From positions 186,806,001 to 186,870,000 of the forward strand of contig OZ024743.1 of NCBI GenBank assembly GCA_964016885.1: a DNA stretch of 64,000 bases. Reading direction: 5' to 3'. Origin of the DNA: Eledone cirrhosa (Eukaryota). Position 1 is the first letter of the stretch. Every line of letters begins with the position of its first letter. Below are positions 16,961-60,352 of this stretch, piece after piece. Under the pieces are notes generated by a model. It did not search any database. It saw only the letters and a program-made list of their open reading frames with translations, and had not been told where the DNA came from. A program made the position numbers and the translations under genes.

Positions 16961-19130
16961 ATCATCATCATCATCATCATCATTTTACGTCCGCTTTTCC
17001 CTGCTTGCAAGGGTGGGACGGGTCTTATTCAGCACAGCATCTCTCCACTCGTCACGGTCCCTCGTCATCTCCACCGTGAGCTTCAATGATCTGAGGTCTG
17101 TTCTCACCACCTCCGCCCATGTTTTTCGTGGTCTACCTCTACTACGTCTTCCTTCAACTGGCATTTCCTGGCACTTCTTCACCCATCGGTCATCCTCCAT
17201 GCGCATCACATGTCCATACCACCTCAGTCTCCTCTCCCGTACACTACATTCTATCCCTCTCAGACACAGTTTCTCTCTCAACACATTTATGCTGGGTCGT
17301 TCACGCACATTTACACTGCACATCCAACGGAGCATGCTTGCCTCATTTCTCTCCAGCCGTCGCATATCTTCTGCGGTAGCTGCCCATGTCTCACTACCAT
17401 GCAGCATCGCGCTCCTCACACAGGCATCATACAACCGGCCTTTCGTACGCAGGGAGAAACCCTTCTTCGTCAACAGAGGAAGCAGCTCCCTAAACTTCTT
17501 CCAACCCGTCCTTATTCTAGATACTATGGCCTCGGAACACCCTCCTCCCATGCTAATCTGATCTCCTAGGTACCGGAAGCTATCCACCACTTCTATAGCG
17601 CCCTCTCGCATTTGAAAAATGTGTCTATCAGTGCGACTTCTACTGTCTAATTTCCCTGTACATCTACTGCATACATATTTCTCCCTACCTGTTAGTTTGC
17701 CTGCTATCCCGCTACATCTCTTGTGTACCCAGGACCTACATTGTGTGCATTTTATAGAATTTATGCCAGTTCCTTTTCTGCATATCGAACATGGCCATTT
17801 CCCTGACGGAATCAGGGTTTTGTCCTCTTTTCTACTCATCAACACTTTTGTCTTAGCTAGATTTACTCTCAGTCCTCTTGCTTCCAACTGCTGTTTCCAT
17901 AGCCGGAATTTATTCTCTAGCTCCTCTACTGATTCTGCCATAAGAGCCAGATCGTCAGCATAGAGAAGTTCCCATGGACAGCCAGTCTTAAACTCCTCTG
18001 TTATGGCTTGGAGGACTATAATGAACAAGAGCGGGCTGAGGACCGAACCCTGATGTACTCCTACTTGTATCTGGAATTCCTCACTAAACTCCATTCCTAC
18101 CCTGACTTTACTGAGAGTACCTCTGTACAAAGTTTGCACTGTCCTTACAAGCCATTCCTCAACACCCAGCTTCCTTAGGGACCACCAGATGACAGATCGG
18201 GGTACCCTATCAAAGGCCTTCTCTAGGTCAACAAAGGCCAAGTATAGTGGCTTATTCTTCTCTAAGAACCTCTCTTGCATTTGTCTCACCAAGAAGAGGG
18301 CATCTGTTGTACTCTTCCCAGGCACAAAACCAAACTGCATCTCATCTAGTTTGACCCTTTCTCTAATTAGTTGTGCTAAAATCCTTTCTGCCACTTTCAT
18401 AACCTGATCTATCAGTTTTATACCCCTATAATTGCTCCTCTCCAAAGCATCCCCTTTACCTTTGTAGCAATTTATGAGAATACTGCTGCACCAGTCTTTG
18501 GGTATGACACCACCATATATAGCCTGATTGATTATGCGTGCAACCAGTTTAGTGCCTACGTCCCCTGATGCCTTCAGCATCTCAGCAACTATTCCCGATG
18601 GTCCGGCCGCCTTACCATTTTTCATTTCCCTAATCGCCTCTTGGACCCTATATTCGTCAATCTCAATAGCTGGTCCCTCTGTCGGATCTACCAAGGGTAA
18701 TTTCTCTCTCTCCCATTCGTTCTCCACATTCATCAGTCTCTCATAATGGCATTTCCAGGCCTCCTTTTTCTGGTCATTCGTGACACTAAGTACACCGGCA
18801 TCATCCCGGACACATTTATCACCAACAACATCCTGATTTGCATTGACACACTGCCTTGCAATGTGGAACACCGCACGCCTCTGATCTTCCCGTCGCAGAA
18901 CATTGGCAAACCTCCTACTCTCTGCCTCCCTGCGTGCTAAGTACACCTGACGTCTAGCTTCTCTCTTAGTGGCTGTATATTCTTCCCTACTCCCACCCTT
19001 ATTCCAAGCCTTCCATGCTAGTCTTTTGTCTCTAATAGCCTTATCTACACTGCTGTTCCACCACCAGGTCACTCTCTGTCTGGTTGGGGCTCTGCTCCAG
19101 CCACAAGTTTCATCAGTAGCCTTCAGCAAT
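16961..19130 (-). mobile_element. RTE-clade LINE, 5'-truncated, young; RT with internal PHD finger and (ATG)n tail
   Basis: Uninterrupted 714-aa ORF 16985-19129 with RT motifs (KAAGPSG, NYRGIKL, QFGFVPG, FVDLEKAFD, GVHQGSVLSPLLF, YADD, FRYLG) and an RTE C-terminus (RRLRWYGHV, RGRPRKTW). The stop is followed almost directly by (ATG)n at 16961-16983. The APE endonuclease is absent. Confidence 0.95.
16985..19129 (-). CDS. RTE reverse transcriptase ORF fragment (no true start codon, N-terminally truncated)
   Basis: Provided ORF; RT subdomains intact, including YADD. Confidence 0.9.
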   Translation of the reverse strand: MLKATDETCGWSRAPTRQRVTWWWNSSVDKAIRDKRLAWKAWNKGGSREEYTATKREARRQVYLARREAESRRFANVLRREDQRRAVFHIARQCVNANQDVVGDKCVRDDAGVLSVTNDQKKEAWKCHYERLMNVENEWEREKLPLVDPTEGPAIEIDEYRVQEAIREMKNGKAAGPSGIVAEMLKASGDVGTKLVARIINQAIYGGVIPKDWCSSILINCYKGKGDALERSNYRGIKLIDQVMKVAERILAQLIRERVKLDEMQFGFVPGKSTTDALFLVRQMQERFLEKNKPLYLAFVDLEKAFDRVPRSVIWWSLRKLGVEEWLVRTVQTLYRGTLSKVRVGMEFSEEFQIQVGVHQGSVLSPLLFIIVLQAITEEFKTGCPWELLYADDLALMAESVEELENKFRLWKQQLEARGLRVNLAKTKVLMSRKEDKTLIPSGKWPCSICRKGTGINSIKCTQCRSWVHKRCSGIAGKLTGREKYVCSRCTGKLDSRSRTDRHIFQMREGAIEVVDSFRYLGDQISMGGGCSEAIVSRIRTGWKKFRELLPLLTKKGFSLRTKGRLYDACVRSAMLHGSETWAATAEDMRRLERNEASMLRWMCSVNVRERPSINVLREKLCLRGIECSVRERRLRWYGHVMRMEDDRWVKKCQEMPVEGRRSRGRPRKTWAEVVRTDLRSLKLTVEMTRDRDEWRDAVLNKTRPTLASREKRT

Positions 19131-21838
19131 TGAACATGACAATGTGTTACAAGGATGGCCCCTTCAATTTACAAGCATAACTCATTTTTGCCAGCTGAGT
19201 GGTGAGGAGCAATGTGAATGAAAGCCTTTGACTCCAAGATACAACATGCCACTTGGTCCAGAAATTTAACCACAACCTTTTGATAGTGAGTAAACATATT
19301 AACTACGAAGCCATCCCCCTTCACCAATGGATCTAATTTTTAAATTCAATTCATTGTTCATAATTAAACTATTTATAATATTCCTTTAAGTTTTAAACAC
19401 TTTTATTAAGAATGCTCTTACTGTAAAAACTGACAAATTGAAAACAAAATGTGTAAATGAGGGACAGTACTCAGATTTTGCAGCACTTTCCAGAATCATG
19501 ATGTCAATCATCACCATTATAATCGTTTAATGTGTGTTTTCCCAGCTAACAAAGTTTGGACACATCATAACAGACTGGTCAGTATTCAAGTAGAACCTCC
19601 AGGTGGGTTAGGGGACTGACATATTATCTTGCACTCTACTGAATGTATTTTATCATGGCACCAACACTGTAAATCTGGCCAGTATTTAACTAAAATGCCT
19701 GCTTGAATAAAAGATTTATGTTGATAATAATCTCAGGTTTTTAAATACATTTTTATTCATGCTATCATGTAAGATGTATCAATTTTCTTTATTTAGAAAC
19801 TAAGTAAAACGTTTTCCTCAAATATCATTTAGTTTACATCTTAAATGGAGTAAATGGCAATTAGGCAGAAGTGACCTTGTTTAGATTTGTGACTAAATCT
19901 TCAAAGAAACTGATCTTAATGATAAAGCCAGACTGTATTAGTATCTAATAATAAATCTTCTGCATAGGTAAGAATTATGTATTTCCAAATCCCTAAATTT
20001 ATATATAAGCATCTATATTTTATGAATGTAGCTTATTGATTTTTTAAAAATTAATTAATATTGGAAATTCAGTTTTAATATCAATTATTCACCAAGCAAT
20101 GTTTTAGAAAGAAGAAAAAGAAAACTATATTTTTGATGATAGGAGAGATTAGGAAACACACACACACAATGTGTTCTACAGAATCATCATTCTAAATGGT
20201 TAGAGGGCCTATATTTCAAATAACATATTTGTGACAGAGTCATAAGAACCAACTTAGTGTTGGTGATTTACATAATACACTCTGTAAAGTAGTTGGGGAT
20301 AGGAAGAGCATACAGTTGTAGAAAGCTTACCAAATAAAAAGTCAGAAGGACCCTCCAGCTCAGTCAATGACATGACAATATACTTAGTGTTAGTGATCAA
20401 CAGGATAAATGCATCCAATGCACTTTGTAAAGTGGTTGGTGATAGGAAGGTCATCCAGCCAGAGGTAACCTGTTAAATAAAGAGTCCTTCTGACTCTTCA
20501 ATTCTGCCATAGACATGAAAAATCTACATAGCGTTGGTGATATACACAATAAACACACATACTACATACTTTAAAATGGTACTTTTGGATGGGTATCTAA
20601 CCATAGAAAACCTGCCAAACAAAAGATCATGAGCACTCTTTAGTTATGTCATGTGCTGGTGTCGTGCAAAAATGCACTTCATTGCGAACAGGATCATATG
20701 TAAGTGAGTTGCTGGCTGCTGGTCCATCAATGTGGTCAGTAGCTCCTCTTAGTACCAATCTGGTCTGCTAATGACACCTCCAACCCTTGCTAACAAGCAA
20801 AGTGGATGTTAATTGATGATGATGATGACAAAACAAAGAAGCATAAAGCATCTTGGGTAAAACCCTTCTTCCTATACACTGTAGCCATTAATTCATTTAC
20901 CAAATTAGACAACCTCATTAGACTAAAGAAAATGTTAAAATGATCAGTCACAAAATGTATTAATAAAATATCAGTACTCTTTTCCTCACACACCTATATA
21001 AATTGTATAGAGCAATATTTTATATAAATGATCCATAACCTCAAAACATATTAATGGAAGCCTAACAATAAAAGCAAATTTCAAGGAATCAGCATTTGAG
21101 AGAAATAGTGTATGATAACTACTTAATCCAATTTCTTGAATGTAGGTTATGTTTTAAACTAATTATTCTTTATGTTAAATATCAATCGTGCTAAACATTG
21201 ATCATGTTAAGCATTAACCATGCTGACAGATGGCTAGATAAAATGCTTTACATTATTTGTTTCTGCTCTTTGTACTCTGAGTTCAAATATCATTGTTGAA
21301 CACTTTGCTTTTCATCCTTTCAGGGTGGATAAATACAGTAACATTTCAGGGCAATGACCTGGTGGAATTGTTGAATGTGATGTCTGGCTGTTTAAATTCT
21401 AATAGCAATGTTATTCCAAACTGTATCAACCCTTGATGTTCTTTTGGATAAAATTAGTGGCATAGAAAAGAGAGATTAGTCACACATAATAAAAAAAACT
21501 TGTCCATGCCTGCACTTTGGAGAGGGACATTACAGAGGAAGATACATAGTTTTACTAAATATTCAGAGGCCCTGGAATATGCTATCTACAAATAGCCACT
21601 GGAAACACCTAATTTTAAGAGTAAAACCATGAACTTTTTCTTTTTAGAATCACAAAAACTTACATGAATAAATACTAGTAACAGCATTGTTAAATACTAT
21701 AATCTATAGTTTTAACTGTTGATGAAATAAATGATATCTAGAGTTACTATCAAATAGAGAAAACATCATCCTATTATTTCCACTTCCTTTTAAGGTGTAG
21801 GAATAGGGAGATAAATTAACATCATTATCATATAGACT

Positions 21839-25728: not shown

Positions 25729-28681
25729 TTTTCTCTTTCTCTTAATTTCGAGTATATTTTTTTGACCGGCCACCTTCCTGGTGGCAAGGTTGTAAAAGAA
25801 AAGAAATTGTCATCCCTTGAATCGCAAGAATGTTTTGCATATTTTGAAGGTGCCAGCTATCGCAGCCATTTGTAGACTATGAATTAGGGAGCTGCGCTTT
25901 TTGTCCGCAAATCCAAGTTCGGTCATACTTTGGTCCAAGCGGGTTGGTATATAACCCGTAGCACCAACAATGATGGGTATGAAGCTAAAGGTGTATCTTG
26001 GATACTGGATTTGTAAGCTCCTCATCAATGGTCCGTAGATGTCCTCCTTCTCCTGTATTTTTCTGACAACGTTTACATCAAGTGGGCAGCTGATCTCCAC
26101 AACAGAACACGTTTTCAATGTGTGGTCCCAAACTACAATATCAGGCCGGTTGTGCTTTAATTTGGTGGCAGTTTTTATTTTCAGGTTCCACCAGTATTCC
26201 TTAGTGCCATCTGTCTCAATATATTCTTCCTCGTTTGTTGTTAATTTTGTTTTCCGAAGTGCGTTCCAGATAGTTCTAGCTATCCCATCGTGTCTCATGG
26301 GAGGTAGTAGCGAGATGACATTCTTTCGCAGCTGGCAACAATGTGGCTTACATCCTCGATCTTTGTTTTACATAGCCTACATTTATTGTCAGCTGCTGGC
26401 CCTCCTCTTTTGTGCAGCAGATATTTGGTAGGGAGTTCTTGTTCCTGTATTGCATAGAGATATCCCTCAAGGTGTGATGTCATAAACTTGTCGGAACTCC
26501 ATGCCAGGCTTTTTGAGTGGTTTATCCCCTCTATGGTCTGTGTTTTACGCCTCAAGTATCCATGCACAACTTTCTCTGTAAATTGGTCAATTTTTTTTTC
26601 TTGTTTGAACATTGAATAGGATCTTCCGATTTCTCTGGGTGAGAGATTTATATCAGGCTTTATTCCATATCTCTCCTCCAGATCAGTCGCTATTCTAATG
26701 ATATTTCTTTTTTCATGCTCATAAACCTGAGCAAGATGGTCGCCAACCTTTTTCCTCTGTTGAAGGTGTTGCTTCAGTGTTACTATCCGGGTCTCATATG
26801 TTGTTAATATTGATTTTAGACCCCGGCCACCTTCCTTGCGTGAGAAGTATAGCCTATCCACATCACCATTGATGTTAAAGTTCCCAGTAACACTGAGAAG
26901 TTTTCGAGTTCTAACATCCATCTCACTTAGTTCTTGCAATGACCAGTTCAGTAGGCCAAATGTTGGCGTTAGAATTGGCACAGCATAGGTATTGTGGGCA
27001 ATGTATTTGTTGTATGCTGACAGTTCTGATGACCATATTTTTTTTACTCTTCTGAGGTATTCAGTTCTGGTTCTCTCCTTATTTATGGGTCCATCATATC
27101 TGACATTCTCATCCTGTCCAAGATATCTGTAGTTGTCACCTGACTGCAGAGGTTGTATTGTCAGGCCGTTCATATCTAGATTTCTAGAGGAGGGCACTGC
27201 TCTTCCACGTTTTACTGCCAAATATGCACACTTGGACTCACCAAATTTCATTTTGATGTCGGTTGAAAATTGTGTAATGAGGTCCAATTGTTTCTTGATG
27301 TCATTGATATTTGGCCCATACAACTTCAGGTCATCAACAAAGAAAAGATGGGAGATACTTCTGGGCCCACTTCTTTGTCCACCTTGTTTCCTGAGTAGGT
27401 AAGATAGTGGATTCAGTGAGAGAACGAAGAGTAGTACTGACAAGCTATCACCCTGAAAGATGCCCTTCTGGTAATGTATCCTATCAGTCTTAACCTGCTC
27501 CTTCTCACCTCTAAGGATCAAATTGGTGTACCAGTTCTTGGTCAGGCGTTCAACAGCAGCTACTAATGGTTGTGGGACTTTAGCTAACTGTAAAGCCTTA
27601 ATAATCCACCCATGAGGTACACTATCAAATGCTTTTTGATAGTCCAGCCACACGATAGTCATGTTTCTGCGATTCTTTGTTGTTTTTTCCTGAATCATTT
27701 TGTTAGTTAGTAAGTGATCTATGCAACCCCACACCTCCCTCTTTCCACCAGCTTGCTCAGGTGTTATGATGTTGTTGGTAGCACAGTGATCCTGTAAGAA
27801 CAGGTTAAGGCACCCAGTATATAATTTATACATGATGTTTTGGCAGGCAATTGGGCGGTAATTTTTAGCAAGGGTGGTTTGGCTATTTTTGGGAATGAGG
27901 AGAGTAGTGGCAGTTGATAACCATCTGGGCAGTTCTTGTTGGCCCTTAATGGTTTCTGTAAACAGCCGTATGAGATCTTGCCGATAGAAAGTGAAATTCT
28001 TCAACCAGTATCCTGTAATGAGGTCTGGGCCTGGCGATTTCCTATTCGACATTTTCTGTAGAGCTGTTTCCAGTATTGACCCATCTATGTCATATTGTTT
28101 TGTCTGGACATGTTGGCAGTAGTCCTGTTCCAGTTGTTTTAGCCAATTAGCTTGTCTGTTGAATCCGTCATCCGTTTCCCATACAGATCTCCAGTAGTTC
28201 TCAACCTGTTCTTTTGAAGGGGTGTCGTTTACAGGGATTGAGCTTTTGCCACCGAAGCTGCGATAAACTGATTTAGGATCTCTGGCAAACAATCTATTTA
28301 GCACTTGTCGTTTATGGGCTGTTGACTTATATTTTAGTCTTTCTGTTGTAGCTGTGAGTTGTTGTTTCAACTGGTGTAATTTGGAGTTCAAAGTTTTAAA
28401 TTTGGTATCTCCAAATCGTCTCTCTAACTTTTTCTTTAGGTCTTCCTGGTGTCGTGTGAAGTTTCTCTCTATGTTGCATTTCATAACGACTGCGATGTGT
28501 GAGATACTTCGTCTCAGGGACAAAATTTTGGTTTTTAAATTTCGCATCCACGCTGGTTCAGGCTTTCTGTTTGTATCTTGATTGTGTGGTTTTAGATGTG
28601 TGTTATATGATAGTAATGTGACAGCTGAAACATATAACAAAACATTGAGCGTTTCAAATGTCGTTTCTACACCTTTAGATC
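25729..28681 (-). mobile_element. R4/Dong-type non-LTR retrotransposon (RT + CCHC + restriction-like endonuclease), 5'-truncated, one frameshift
   Basis: ORF motifs KSPGPD, NYRPIAC, WLDYQKAFDSVPH, GIFQGDSLS, FVDDLKLY, YRYLG, RKEGGRGL, CRLC..E...H....C, then RHD and RPDIVV...VEISCP...K (RLE) in ORF 25810-26298. There is an 81-nt 3'UTR, and (TATG)n lies on both flanks. Confidence 0.93.
25810..28681 (-). pseudogene. R4/Dong ORF split by a 1-nt frameshift at ~26298 (RYYLP / MRHD)
   Basis: ORFs 26295-28877 and 25810-26298 overlap at ATGA and join into the expected ..YLP-x-RHD.. motif. The first ~65 aa of the 860-aa ORF are translated microsatellite. Confidence 0.88.
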
Positions 28682-28682
28682 G

Positions 28683-28700
28683 TATATGTATGTATGTATG

Positions 28701-28732
<32 letters not shown>

Positions 28733-28865
28733 TGTATGTATGTATGTATGTATGTATGTATGTATGTATGTGTGTGTATGTATGTGTGTATGCGTGTGTG
28801 CAAGTGTGTGTGTGTGCGTGTGTGTGTGTGCGCGCGTGTGTGTGTGTGTTTATGTACGCATGTGT
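28683..28865. repeat. (TATG)n/(TG)n compound microsatellite
   Basis: Direct reading; the partner (TATG)6 is at 25705-25728. Confidence 0.97.
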
Positions 28866-29793
28866 AGGAAAGATCATGAGTTTTGCACCTAGATAGTTCC
28901 CCTCTGTAACACAAACTCAGGAAAGGTGTTTTTGTAGAAGACCAGCAGTCACTAATCTCTCCTCTTGATGCCACAGTTGTTGTCCAAGGAAAATCAATCG
29001 CCAAAGCAGCTTGGCACCACTGACATTACAACTATTTTCTCCAGCTGAGTGAACTGAAGCAATTTAAAATAAGGCATCAAGCTCAAGGAAACAATGCATT
29101 GCCTGGTCTGGGAATTGAACTCACAACCTATCTATTGCAAACCCAATGCTCTAACAACTAAGACATGTGCCTTCACATTAGAATGCAAAGATTAACATGT
29201 TAATTGCCCAATTGGTAGAGAACTGTGAGTTCTTAAATCTACATGGTTGAATTTAACAAGGGACTAAACAGCAAAATCAGCATGCATTAAGAGAGAGTTT
29301 GAAAACCATATTTTATTCAATTCATCTACTGTTCAGTAAGCTACATGCACACTTTTTTTTAACACAGATATTTCCTGTATCTCATGGAAATGTGACAATA
29401 TATCTACTGAAGATGAAAGACAGTTGAATCACAAAACCTTCTGTCATATTTAATTTATTATTATTATAAATTCATTGATGGTGGCTCACCTTACTGAGGT
29501 GTCAGGTGTTGCCTGTAAGGGTACCTAGCTGTTTCAGTGCCTTAAACTCGCCATCATCTGTGGTAATGCTGCGAGCATTACTGGCTTGCCTCAAAATGTT
29601 CTGTTGACCCTTATGATGTGCAGCTGCTTGTCGCACTTAGTGGTAAATTGATGATCATTTTCGTTTTTGTTTCTCTCTTTTTTTATTTTTCTATTTTTTT
29701 CTTCCTCTCGCCTGGGTCATGTGTTTTGGTGTGTTGTTTTTGTGAGGTTCCTGGGGATGGCTGGTTGTATTTGTTATATGCATTTATATGATG

Positions 29794-34195: not shown

Positions 34196-36097
34196 CTGAA
34201 TACACACGCACACACACACGTGTGTGTGTGTGTATGTAGATATATATATACACACAAAAACAGAATATAAAGAAACCGAAAAGATATTTATTGATGGGAT
34301 AACAATTGGATACCTAAGTATAAAATAAGAGAAGAAGAATATATTTAGTCTATATGAATGAAGAATTAAAACTCAAATTTTAACTCAAAAGCTTACTGGT
34401 TTCTTAACCATGATTCAAGAAAAATGGGAATATTAAAAAATCTTCATCTATTTTATTGAAATATACAGTACCTTGCAGTATGGGAGAAGCCTGCTTCTAA
34501 ATTGTTCAGATTTGATGGAGACTGGAAACTAAAACAATTTCCTGTTTTCTCTTTATCTATTATTGCTATTGATATTTCAAAAAGATAATCCAATCACTAA
34601 GATAATGTAGACTAGATGACAATCTTCAGCAAATCACCAGCTCAACTAGCAATTAAAATCAATGTGATTTTCTGATCATTCATTTTTTTTCAACGAAAGG
34701 AAATTTTCCCATCTCATTGGTATACATTCCATAACTGCTTTATCCAAGGCAAATTTCTATGGCCAGATACCCTTCCTGGTACTAACCCATATTTTTCAGT
34801 ATGATAGTGAATTACGGTGTTTTGGAGATGGAGTTGAACACAGGTGTACATATACATACAAATGACAGGCTTTTACAGAGTCTCCATCTACCGAATTGAC
34901 TGACAAGGCAGTGGCCAGCTTGAGGCTATAGGAGACTGAACTCAGAACTACATGATTTAAAAGTGATCTTCTAAATCATTCAGCAATAACTGCATTAATA
35001 CTATTTAATGAGTGATAGGAATAATATAGGATGATGAGATAAAACGATGATGTAAACTATATGCAACTATGGTTTACAAGCTTATAAGGAAGTCTATGTA
35101 GTCAAACAGCCCGCTAAAAGTAACTGTCAAATTCTCCTTTAAATCACACCTTTCAATCTTGACAGAAGGAAGGAAACATTGGGTTATGTAATACTAGATA
35201 TCTCCATGAAGAAAAAATAGCTCTGACTAGAATGTCATTGATCACATGTCTGCTCAATTTGGGATTACCTGGAGCAGAACAATATCAACTATGGTTTAAT
35301 CAGGATTTTATTTTTTAGCTAGATTAATGCTAAAAGTTATTTAGCAAATCAATAATTATTGAAGAGAATGGCATGTAGAACAGAATATCAAAGGTAAATT
35401 TCCGCCTTCCATTTAAATTTTCCTCTGTCTATATGGTTTTCATTGGTGTTTACCTTCTCTTTAGAGACATGGCCATATAAACAAACTTGACTGTAAGAGA
35501 TTCATATTTAGAATAAAATAGTTGAGTGAATTAAGTCACCACTGATTTTGCCATGGTTTTAAATCTTTCACTATGGTGCATTAAATATTCAGGGAACCTT
35601 AAGATCTTGTGTGGATAAAACCAACATTTAGATAATTGATGATAGATCCTTCTTTGGTTTCAATGATGACCACTTAATTGGATGTTCAGTTAACTGGATG
35701 GTTGATTATTCCATAGACATTTTACCTTTAATATAATTCCTAATCAGCATTTGTGACAAGATTGGACCTTTAAATAACAGGTACCATCTATCCAACGGTA
35801 TTCCACACACTTTCTGACTATCCAATTACATTCACAAAGTTTGGCTTGACCTAAGGTTATGATAAAGACACTTGTCTAAAATACCACATAATGGGATTGA
35901 ACCCATGATTGTAATGTACATTATTTAACTACTCAGCTATGCTCCCATGTTTGGATAACACCAGTTTCATTGTATAAAGTATTTTACAGCACTTAAAACA
36001 AAAGATTAAATAAGAAATGTATAGAATTCTGTATTTAGTCCTATCAGTGTTATGGTCATGGTGTAATGTATATTCTATTAGGTGTATGCTTCATTTG

Positions 36098-36185
36098 ACT
36101 TACCTGAATTTAGGTATGAATTCATAGAAAAGTAAAAAGGCACACTTACCTATAAAAGAAAGAAAAATAAAGAAATTATTAGAAA
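36098..36185 (-). other. Candidate recursive splice site with 46-nt RS-exon (36149-36104)
   Basis: Minus strand: TTTCTAAT branch motif, TTTCTTTATTTTTCTTTCTTTTATAG|GTAAGT, and 46 nt from the junction a second donor CAG|GTAAGT. Confidence 0.65.
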
Positions 36186-36964
36186 TAAGAATTTACAATT
36201 AAAGAGAGAAAAATATTTAAAGAGTTTTTCAAATCAAAATAATGAAATTTAATTATTTGCAATAGAAAATGAAAACAGTGGAATAGTAAATCATGAATCA
36301 ATAACAAAGTGATGTGAGGTTTTATGTACTTAATAATTTCTCCTCTTTTATGTTGACATGGAGCCTTAGGTATATTTTACAAACTGAGAACCTTAAGCAT
36401 GACTTCATTTTAATGAGTAAGGTTAAATTTCTTCTTACAAATAGGCAATACTTGTAGTTGGCCTTTAAGTCATGTTTGTGACATCGGCTATTTGGTGTTA
36501 TGAACTGACAATTTAAGATTTTATCCACTCAAAGAAAATAATTATGTAACTGATATGATTATTGATACAGCTAAATAATACATTACATAGAATAAATTAC
36601 AAATTCAATAATTTACTTTTTTATGAGAGACTGCTGAATGAGGAGAATGCATGACAGAAAGATATCTGCATCAAGGAAACACAGCAAAGCCAGTAACAGG
36701 ATCAGCAACTTAAGTCATCATCATCATCAATGTTTTATGTTTGTCTTACCAGACAAATTAATTATGCTAGCAAATTAAACTAACCATTTCAGATATATTA
36801 TATCTCTTGCTTAATATCTATAGTAAGATTCTTCTCTAGACAGGCCCACAGGGTAGTTATGTTTTGATAAAGAGAGAAAAAATTCTGAAATCCAAAACAG
36901 TGGTCTTTTACAATGTTCTGTGTATAAAGGAATAATGGAATGGGTTAGTACTTCATTATTTTTA

Positions 36965-37343
36965 GGGTGGTGGATTGGCAGTATCAGTAGAGGGTCGGAC
37001 GCCATGCTTTCCAGCACAGTTACGTCCCTTTACGATCTGAGTTCAAATCCCGCCGAGGTTGACTTTGTCTTTCATCCTTACGGAGTCGTTAAAATAAAGT
37101 ACCAGTAATGTACTGGGTAATTGCTGGCCTTGTGCCTAAAGTAGAAACAATTATTTTTAGGGTGGTGGGTTGGCAGTATTGGTAGAGGGTTGGACGTCAT
37201 GCTTTGATGCATATGGCCCTTTCCATTCTGAGTTAAAATCCCGCCGAGGTCAACTTTGCCTTTCATCCTTACGGGGTCGATAAAATAAAGTACCAGTAAT
37301 GTACTGGCGAATTGCTGGCCTTGTGCCAAAAGTAGAAACAATT
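36965..37343 (+). mobile_element. Two SINE A copies in tandem
   Basis: Full copies at 36965-37152 and 37160-37343. ATTATTTTTA occurs at 36955, 37150 and 37341. Confidence 0.9.
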
Positions 37344-37467
37344 ATTTTTACCAGAAAGGCCTAGAAATCATTATTTTTCTCAGAAAGGCTTCTAATTCAA
37401 AACTATACTTAGATCTACTCAAAATTTACCTTAAATCTTAAATATATATCTTTTCTCTGGCTGTCTG

Positions 37468-40734: not shown

Positions 40735-42136
40735 TGATACAACAGCGGCTCATGGGTGGATGTTGTTTACCTTGACTTTACTAAGGCTTTTAATTCTGTG
40801 CCACACAAAAGACTTATGGCAAAACTCTCTGCAATGGGTGTGAGGGATGATCTTTTCGACTGGTTGAAATCCTTCATTCTCAGCCGAAAAGAAGTAGTCA
40901 CGGTTCTAGGACAGCATTCTTCACCATATGAGATGTCATCTGGTGTACCACAGGGATCTGTTCTTGGTCCCCTTTTGTTTGTGGCATATATTAATAACAT
41001 AGATGCCAACTTACAGAATGCCACGGTACTGAAATATGCAGATGACATCAAGCTGTACCTTGAAATCAAAAGGACTGATCCTGAAATCTACAACTCTTTC
41101 CTACAATCAGACCTGGACACATGCAGCAATGGATCACAGACTGGCAACTGAAGCTGGCTGTGGACAAGTGTACCACCATGCATTTTGGGAGGAAAAATCC
41201 AGCATCCACATACTCCCTCCACAACACTGATACCAAGAAGTCCTCTTGTGATCGTGACCTGGGCATTACTGTCAGCAGCGATTTGCGTTGGACAAAGCAT
41301 GTCTCTAAGATTGTCAAGAAGGCCGAGGGTGTCTTGGCATCACTCAGCAATACCTTTGTTAGCCGCTCTTCAGCCATCTATTTAAAACTGTATACAGCTA
41401 TGGTACGACCACACTTGGAATTCGCATCATCAGTCTGGAACCCCTATCTTGCTCAGAACATTGACCTCCTGGAAACTGTTCAGAGACGTGCAACCAAGCG
41501 CATACCCTCCATCAGACACTTACCATACTCTGAACGCCTTGCTTCCCTGGGCATGGATTCATTGAAGCTCTGACGTCTGGCAATGGACTTGGTGAATACT
41601 CACAGAGTTATTAACCATCTCACCAATTGCAACCCTGAGCACCTTTTTGATCTCCATGTGTCTAACACACGTGGACATGCCTACAAAATCAGAAAACAGC
41701 ACAGCTCCCATGACTTTCGTAGACATTTTTTCACGCTCAGAGTTGCTGAAGCATGGAACAAACTGCCTGCGTCAGTTGTTAGCTGCCGAGACACTGCATC
41801 CTTTAAGACACTCATGCTTCCCGAAATACGCCAAAGCTACACCTGATGTACCCCTTCCATACACATGCACACATGTGTGTATCATGACTCGTGCACTGTT
41901 CATTTTCCTGATGTTTGTGCATTGCCCTATGTACTGTACATGCACTTTTTGATGAGTTGTGGTGCACCTGAGCACTGTACACAATATTTCATTGTTATTA
42001 TTGTTATTATTATTATATCATGACTCATACACTTTTCATTTTCCTGACATTTGTACATTATTCTATGTACTATACATGCACCTTTGATGAGTTGTAGTGC
42101 ACCTGAGCACTGTACACAATAATTTCATTATTATTA
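40735..42136 (+). mobile_element. CR1-clade LINE, 5'-truncated, with duplicated 3'UTR and (ATT)n tail
   Basis: YLDFTKAFNSVPH, SGVPQGSVLGPLLF, YADD, RDLG, VRPHLEFASSVWNP, VQRRATK, TRGH, RV...WNKLP. Frameshift at ~41120 and an in-frame TGA at 41571. Confidence 0.92.
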
Positions 42137-58020: not shown

Positions 58021-59024
58021 TAATGCATTTAAATAATAAATACAAAAAAAGGATGAAGAAATTTAAGACATGTTATTAGTGTTACGTGTATTTCAACAAG
58101 AATGAATATGAAATAAGGAAATGACAAAGATTTCATTTAAAATGCATTTTAGTATATAAGAATAAATCCATATACAGAATTTAATTTAAGGATTTATTCC
58201 AATATACTAACATTTTACCATTTCCTTATTTCATATTGCTTCTGGTTGAAACACTTGTAAAACTAATGAAATATCTTAAATGTCTTCATCATTCTTGTAT
58301 TTATCATTCTATCACATATTGAGATTTATGTTCTAGAAATATCATCATATACATGTGTGACAATAGTATTACATTTTGTAGTTATAAAATATTGATAAAT
58401 GGACAGTTGATCACTAAAAGAAGTAGGCCATAACATTTAGGAAATTTATTGGAAACCTAGAATTTAACATTCATCATTATTGTGTTTTTAATGCCCACTT
58501 TTCAATGCTGGCATGGGTTACCTGAGACCTCATGAGACAGTTTTTATATTTCTGATGCCATTCAATACTGTATTTTTAAATGTGGTATATACAGCTAATC
58601 TCTGTTGAAACACTAAAATACACAACCTATTGTTTATGTGGGATATGAACAAATGTTTTTGCTTGATTTAAATGGTGCCAATATAAAGTTGCGATGTGTT
58701 CCTTCACAGTATCTGTCTACAAACTCCACTTACAAGGCATTGGTCATCCCAAGACTTTAGGAGATGGCACTTGCCTAATGCGTAATACAGGGAGCAGGAA
58801 CCTGAAATCTTCATAACCAAACTGCCATGCTTGCACCTAATTGTAAAATGTATTACTTGTTAACTATATTATACAACTCATCAACATCATCATCACCACC
58901 CCTGATTAACATTTACTTTCCATGCTTTCATGAGTTAGACAGGTTGTAACCTTCTGAGGCTAGAGGAAACAAGTACCCATGTCTTGACCATAAGTTCAGT
59001 TTTAGGCTTAGTTTCTATTGAGGA

Positions 59025-60352
59025 CCTTATCTGGTGGGCTCTTAGAAAACTAGGTGTTGATGAATGGCTTGTGAGAGGTATACAAGCCATGTATAAAGAA
59101 ACAGTCAGCAAGGTTAGAACTAACAACGAATATAGTGAAGAGTTTAGCGTAAAAGTCGGTGTTCATCAGGGTTCCGTTCTTAGCCCCCTACTATTTATTA
59201 TTGCCCTTCAGGCTATAACAGAGGAGTTCAAGACCGGCTGCCCATGGGAACTCCTATATGCAGATGATCTAACGCTCATAGCTGAATCAATGGTTGAACT
59301 AGAGAAGAAATTCCGAACATGGAAGCATAGCCTAGAATCAAAAGGCCTTAAAGTTAACCTGTCTAAGACTAAAGTTCTAGTTTGTAGGAAGGAAAATAGG
59401 GCACCGGTCCCATCTGGGAAATGGCCATGCTCAGTGTGTAGGAAAGGAGTAGGCAGAAACTCCATTTTATGTTCCAAATGCAAAGTATGGGTGCATAAAA
59501 GATGTAGTGGGATCACAGGTAAGCTAACTAAGAATATAGATTTTATATGCGGCCGGTGCGCTGGTGCAATAAGTAGCAGCAAGTGCCCACAGAATACTAG
59601 TTCATTCCATTGTACAGATGGTTCTATAGAAATAGTGGACACCTTCCGTTACCTGGGTGACAAAATCAGCAGTGGGGGAGGGTGCTCTGAAAGTACAGTA
59701 GCTAGAGTCAGAACGGGATGGAAAAAGTTCAGAGAGCTTATACCACTATTGGCCACTAAAGGGTTCTCTCTAAAAATGAAAGGCAGGCTGTATGATGCCT
59801 GCATACGAACAGCAATGTTACATGGCAGTGAGACCTGGGCATTGTGTGCAGAGGATATGCACAGACTGGAGAGGAACGAAGCTTGCATGCTCCGCTGGAT
59901 GTGTAATAGTAATATACGTGAACGACAAAGCGTAAACGAACTAAGGGAGAAATTAGGAATAAGAGGGATCAGATGTTGTTTACTCGAGAGAAGACTACAT
60001 TGGTACGGTCACGTGATATGCATGAAAGATGACAGTTGTATAAAAAAGTGCAGGGCGATAAAAATAGACGGTAGCCACGGAGTAGGCAGACCCAGAAAAA
60101 CCTGGGACGACGTGTAGGTGTCACGACAAAAAAACACAGAGTCTACGCTGTAATGTGGCCATGTAGGTAACACAGTAAAAACCTCCCAGTCCAGACTGTA
60201 AACGTGGTTGGTGTTAGAAAGGGCATCCAGCCGTAGAAAACCCGCCAGACAGCCCTATACGAGCAGGACAACCAATCTTGCCTCAAGTGGGAAAACTCCC
60301 ATCCAAACCCATGCAAGCGCGGAAGATGGACGTTAAACGATGATGATGATGA
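59025..60352 (+). mobile_element. RTE-clade LINE (second subfamily, PHD-containing), 5'-truncated, ending in a SINE-like 3' segment and (TGA)n tail
   Basis: ORF to 60117 is highly similar to the 16985-19129 protein (GVHQGSVLSPLLF, YADD, PHD, GRPRKTW). Probable TSD TGAGGA at 59019-59024 and 60353-60358. Confidence 0.93.

Follow-up and report, generated by a model that had tools for sequence, protein, structure and literature searches.

[quoted passage not shown] The gene was located by a heuristic exon scan of 1.06 Mb around the window, followed by tblastn with cephalopod alpha2delta-3 proteins (exons 1-5). An earlier sequence-only reading of the window had proposed a giant minus-strand host intron on the strength of a motif typical of recursive splicing. 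That intron exists, measures 278 kb, and holds the motif in the orientation of the gene. The features are as follows, in window positions unless a C4 coordinate is given, with a slash marking the splice junction:

C4:187,068,732-186,790,527, minus strand: intron 1, 278,206 nt, from tblastn exon mapping, with no N inside
C4:186,972,252-186,972,191, minus strand: site A, a candidate ratchet point with a 62-nt putative cryptic exon, 130 kb upstream of the window site
36152..36328, minus strand: AG-free zone of 177 nt upstream of the acceptor
36178..36182, minus strand: branch-point-like CTAAT with its A at -30 (36179), a putative branch point
36154..36175, minus strand: polypyrimidine tract, pyrimidine at 21 of 22 nt
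36144..36152, minus strand: candidate ratchet point TAG/GTAAGT, the acceptor directly abutting the donor (TAG 36152-36150, GTAAGT from 36149)
36104..36149, minus strand: putative cryptic RS-exon of 46 nt, which, retained behind exon 1, would bring a stop at codon 38
36098..36106, minus strand: second (RS-exon) donor CAG/GTAAGT, GT at 36103, with 9 Watson-Crick pairs to the 5' end of U1 from the same genome

The alpha2delta-3-like gene runs from C4:187,068,842 down to ~186,204,750 by tblastn. Exon 1 (110 coding nt, ending ACT/GTAAGT) and exon 2 (starting at 186,790,526) are 97% and 100% identical to Octopus sinensis XP_036356717.1, and exons 1-4 can be joined without a stop. Exon 5 matches the [quoted passage not shown] proteins of Argonauta hians (E 1e-22) and O. 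sinensis and shows a weak VWA_N match; it returned no PDB match, and exon 3 as sole query returned no homolog. The exons for residues 222-400 are on an unplaced contig (C45:38,446-86,666), and a 200-N gap at C4:186,578,340, where they would be expected, marks this as an assembly gap. An exon-like match at C4:186,944 kb was dropped as a host exon, since it belongs to a frame that we take to be LINE ORF1-like. The window itself holds long open reading frames or fragments at 16985-19168 (-), 26295-28916 (-), 40738-41846 (+) and 58939-60117 (+), presumably non-LTR retrotransposon reverse transcriptases by their resemblance, and two tandem copies of a highly abundant short interspersed repeat (36955-37350, read depth in millions) 0.8 kb upstream of the splice motif.

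The motif occupies window positions 36098-36328. The branch-like word about 30 nt upstream, the ~22-nt tract, the TAG and the GTAAGT at 36149 are all present, base for base, as first read, and so is the second donor with its GT at 36103, 46 nt past the first. The claim that they sit in non-repeat DNA also holds: the site is outside the self-repeats of a 464-kb region, and the 301 nt around it match a single place in the genome (in a search which ignores common words). Gaps between AGs as long as 177 nt are rare, with 96 of 51,429 on the same strand over 864 kb. CTAAT also precedes the real acceptors of exon 2 and exon 4, at -28 and -30 respectively, and is absent before exon 3. DNA contigs from one sample, possibly the assembled one, span 34500-36650 unbroken with 2 differences and the motif unchanged. 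A site of this strict type is expected 0.0004 times per 64-kb window, a figure to be read knowing that the window was chosen for the site.

Intron 1 contains another site built in the same way. Site A has a tract with pyrimidines at 20 of 20 positions, an AG-free stretch of 114 nt, AG/GTAAGT, and then CAG/GTAAGA 62 nt further on; a DNA contig covers the motif without differences, and no CT[AG]A[CT] word falls within the final 60 nt before its acceptor. At both sites, sequencing runs give uniform DNA-like cover with no joints, which says nothing either way on expression. The two sites divide intron 1 into segments of 96,480, 130,103 and 51,623 nt. Eight YAG/GT sites exceed loose thresholds in the 1.06 Mb, and the two in intron 1 score highest (11.9 and 10.4, the next being 7.8, with acceptor and donor weights that are our own heuristics, not trained on octopus). 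They are the only ones that combine an acceptor score >10 with a GTAAGT donor, and both are on the sense strand; the best site on the antisense strand of the same 1.06 Mb scores 4.9.

Elsewhere in the gene such sites are weaker or absent. Intron 2 (113 kb) has a moderate AG/GTGAGG at C4:186,726,029 (-) with no second GT[AG]AG within 150 nt. A 238-kb intron further down (C4:186,519,375-186,281,073) has one weak candidate at 186,283,169 (score 4.6), 2 kb from its end, and the same scan found no candidate in intron 3 (82 kb). Giant introns thus do not require such sites.

The strict pattern Y12-N-YAG/GTAAGT has 120 matches genome-wide where 17-18 are expected, a 7-fold excess, with the expectation taken from near-miss patterns (GTAA[ACT]T, 82 matches; GT[CT]AGT, 31) scaled by background hexamer counts. 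Because the GTAA[ACT]T control shares the TAA, it is the donor and not the stop codon that is enriched. Variant donors are weakly enriched: GTGAGT has 32 matches against 17.8 expected (1.8-fold) and GTAAG[ACG] 54 against 38.7 (1.4-fold), ~14 of them in tandem repeats. A few of the strict matches could be ordinary donors at exon ends, a contribution that is probably small. A control with the reversed pattern (30 matches) was discarded as less suitable than near-miss hexamers and as unstable, since it gives 437 matches for GTAA[ACT]T.

Strict sites also tend to be followed by a second donor. With the first 30 test and first 30 control loci in genome order, a set that includes neither intron 1 site, GT[AG]AG occurs 20-125 nt downstream at 13 of 30 test loci and 3 of 30 controls (p 0.007; 11% at random places), and in a window 300 nt further on at 3 and 4, respectively. 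The 13 include a duplicated pair of 98% identity, and the remaining 17 of the 30 test loci have no GT[AG]AG within 125 nt. Ranked by weight score, 9 test loci and 0 controls have a second donor of at least 4, and 3 and 0 one of at least 6. AG-free zones are marginally longer than in controls (median 56 versus 39.5, p 0.05), and the DNA upstream of the test loci is AT-rich (GC 0.13-0.39), unlike coding sequence.

The strict sites are clustered and co-oriented. Among 100 of the 120 sites, 19 pairs of neighbors are at most 750 kb apart, versus 4.1 expected and a maximum of 12 in 5000 shuffles; 18 of the 19 are on the same strand (16 of 17 without two likely duplicates; 3 of 4 among the 82 controls). 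Of 52 of the 86 variant sites, those on C1-C18, the 6 that lie no more than 300 kb from a strict site are all on its strand, as are 7 of the 9 that lie no more than 750 kb away. For sites up to 1 Mb from domain matches, the strand is the same in 6 of 6 cases for Ig I-set, 5 of 6 for ion-channel and 1 of 4 for homeobox domains, compared with 2 of 6 for controls (79 of the 82); here matches were collapsed to cluster ends on placed contigs, and nearness is not proof of a shared gene.

Three places drew attention in these surveys. On C3, three strong co-oriented sites (79,076,229, 79,024,088 and 78,938,710, minus strand) lie 52 and 85 kb apart with none comparable antisense, and no host gene was found in the 200 kb searched (C3:78.92-79.12 Mb). 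A strict site at C8:3,674,000 (-) is 438 kb past seven minus-strand homeobox matches (C8:4.1-7.1 Mb), a run which, by its resemblance, may be a Hox cluster. At C24:5,478,381-5,478,844 (+), nine acceptor + GTAAGA motifs form a short tandem array ~84 kb past same-strand Ig-domain matches.

These counts bear on whether the window motif could be a chance product of AT-rich DNA or a relic out of use. Chance alone would account for some 17 of the 120 strict matches and the genome is rich in pyrimidine runs, but intron 1 has two sense-strand sites, each followed by a second donor and preceded by a long AG-free zone, and the probability of a second strict site in the same intron, which was found afterwards, is ~0.0008 even with the second donor left out of the figure. 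We regard chance or decay as extremely unlikely.

The motif could instead belong to a real exon that is never re-spliced, either a cassette poison exon skipped by direct splicing of exon 1 to exon 2, or an alternative first exon, transcribed from a promoter inside the intron, which uses the first GTAAGT as its donor. A strong acceptor and a strong donor do define an exon, and the unspliced TAG/GTAAGT pairs well with U1 (-12.4 kcal/mol). This would however leave unexplained the 7-fold excess of GTAAGT after strong acceptors relative to GTAA[ACT]T, which carries the same stop. Against an ordinary internal exon that ends at the AG/GT stands the lack of any acceptor scoring >4.5 within 700 nt upstream, and against a first exon stand the branch word, tract and AG-free zone, which are acceptor features. 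Use as an exon of either kind is very unlikely.

The fate of the 46-nt piece was followed in the reading frame of the host. It does not behave as an ordinary coding exon or microexon: the frame is lost, the piece is absent from homologs and there is no AG within 177 nt upstream. In proteins from O. sinensis, O. bimaculoides and a cuttlefish-type cluster, exon 1 passes straight into exon 2 with no insert, so productive mRNA presumably skips both the 46-nt and the 62-nt pieces. The sequence-only reading had argued that inclusion would frameshift the transcript and so poison it. A stop does result, by another route: intron 1 is in phase 2, and a kept piece therefore places an in-frame TAA directly at codon 38 and not a frameshift stop further on. 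All three inclusion forms, with the site A piece, the window piece or both, stop at codon 38. The lengths 62 + 46 = 108 nt would together preserve the frame, yet the first TAA still terminates.

Some other possible products of the piece were considered. An ATG within the 46 nt was dropped as the start of a Hox-like peptide, because its frame does not match that of exon 2 and the host gene does not belong to the Hox genes. O. sinensis isoform X2 (XP_036356718.1), which starts at a Met in exon 5, was rejected as a trace of RS-exon inclusion because an in-frame Met in exon 2 would precede it. An internal ATG in exon 1 (C4:187,068,757, coding position 86) is open through exon 4 only with the 46-nt piece kept; it would replace the signal peptide, has a weak context and is probably incidental.

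Joining the end of exon 1 to GTAAGT in silico yields exon 1's native donor at -3..+6, because both ratchet points begin with GTAAGT. Donor strength was compared as duplex energy with the 5' end of U1 from the same genome, a crude measure. At the window site the regenerated donor pairs at -7.3 and the RS-exon donor at -12.1 kcal/mol (7 versus 9 Watson-Crick pairs), and at site A the values are -5.4 and -11.0 kcal/mol. The U1 snRNA genes themselves form tandem arrays with a period of ~2.67 kb at C2:180,973,544-180,995,099 and on C1128. The description of the window motif as a textbook site of recursive splicing is accordingly borne out for its AG/GT, its short cryptic exon and its competing donor and not for the balance of the donors, where the regenerated one is outdone by the second in pairing with U1. 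Full silence is therefore not assured, and some inclusion, as a poison exon, is plausible. With its regenerated donor weaker than the RS-exon donor, the window site is not classed as a fully silent zero-nucleotide ratchet point.

The donor imbalance raises a variant in which the site is used recursively and a substantial fraction of transcripts, under regulation, retains the 46-nt exon, so that the codon-38 stop would remove the message and the site would serve to switch the dose of the channel subunit. At both intron 1 sites U1 pairing is stronger for the second donor than for the regenerated one, and both second donors have the consensus CAG, most sites genome-wide being weaker (a score of at least 6 in 3 of 30). 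In Joseph et al. 2021 (PMC8605326), the fly ratchet donor is usually the stronger and relative donor strength governed inclusion in Bx and kuz alleles, with a weakened donor leading to full inclusion in Bx; the hth exon, however, is skipped though its ratchet donor is the weaker. Against regulated inclusion there is also the crudeness of duplex energies and the fact that exon 1's native donor, identical at -3..+6, must work. Protein records cannot show decayed transcripts and so speak neither for nor against the switch. We consider regulated inclusion unlikely.

Our preferred reading, to which we give a probability of about 0.7, is that the window site is a ratchet point with a 46-nt cryptic exon and the second of two that remove intron 1 stepwise. 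Recursive use of the site is very probable when the silent and the poison forms are taken together. Following the Drosophila model, from which we infer every splicing step, the acceptor and second donor would define the short cryptic exon; exon 1 would be spliced to the AG, rebuilding a donor identical to its own at -3..+6; and re-splicing from the rebuilt donor would remove the cryptic exon together with the next intron segment. The order would be site A (C4:186,972,252), then the window site, then exon 2, in steps of 96, 130 and 52 kb. Most mRNA would carry no trace of these events, and a smaller share may retain the 46 nt and yield no protein.

The window thus holds a likely recursive splice site, a known mechanism in a new phylum. 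If the sites are used, fly-style stepwise splicing is extended to molluscs. The combination of a 3-Gb genome, vertebrate-sized introns and a 7-fold excess of the ratchet motif separates intron size from lineage, and suggests that recursive splicing is old in bilaterians, was thinned out in vertebrates and works over ~100-kb steps. More speculatively, and on balance doubtfully, octopus might run a fly-style program at vertebrate scale, with ~100 or more co-oriented GTAAGT ratchet points in the very long early introns of neuronal genes, including genes for Ig-domain proteins and ion channels, taken in steps of 50-500 kb, and with the alpha2delta-3 cryptic exons as regulated poison switches setting the dose of a presynaptic subunit. 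The site coordinates and the alpha2delta-3-like gene are direct targets for public octopus and squid total RNA-seq, and a site whose second donor is the stronger puts the donor-competition model to a natural test.

In flies, recursive splicing is established at more than 500 sites. A literature search, with subscription papers mostly outside its scope, found no report of it in molluscs, and no mollusc, nor any other lophotrochozoan, is among the 13 genomes in Table 1 of Shepard et al. 2009 (PMC2773006). For straightjacket of the fly, no match was found in 9 supplementary files of PMC6110457; the tables of Duff et al., outside this search, may list the gene.

The octopus sites resemble the Drosophila ratchet points of Ubx, kuz, Bx, luna and hth in having AG/GTAAGT in a long intron, with the window site's putative branch point near -30, where the fly branch-point peak lies (Duff et al. 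preprint, 10.1101/006163). They share a short out-of-frame cryptic exon, ~50 nt in flies (PMC8605326), with a second donor, the occurrence of several sites per intron (two in kuz) and absence from the protein. They differ in scale: intron 1 is 278 kb, compared with at most 133 kb in the fly, and its segments are 52-130 kb, compared with 2.6-63.6 kb; in the same preprint 6% of large fly introns are recursive and the largest segment is 63.6 kb. The octopus second donor pairs better with U1, which in flies is reported only for exceptions such as hth (PMC8605326), and the octopus sites are known from DNA, whereas the fly sites have RNA proof.

The sequence-based, strand-biased excess matches that of insects and sea urchin in the survey of Shepard et al. 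(PMC2773006), where ratchet motifs are enriched 4- to 22-fold; our control consists of near-miss hexamers and theirs of the antisense strand of annotated introns. Vertebrate RS-exons (Sibley et al. 2015, as given in PMC8605326) provide the other likeness: a giant early intron of a neuronal gene, a 3-Gb genome, a premature stop and donor competition, with only nine fully suppressed sites noted for mammals in PMC8605326. Unlike vertebrates, whose large introns show an enrichment of at most 1.5-fold (PMC2773006), the octopus genome has an excess of ~100 strict sites, 7-fold over expectation.
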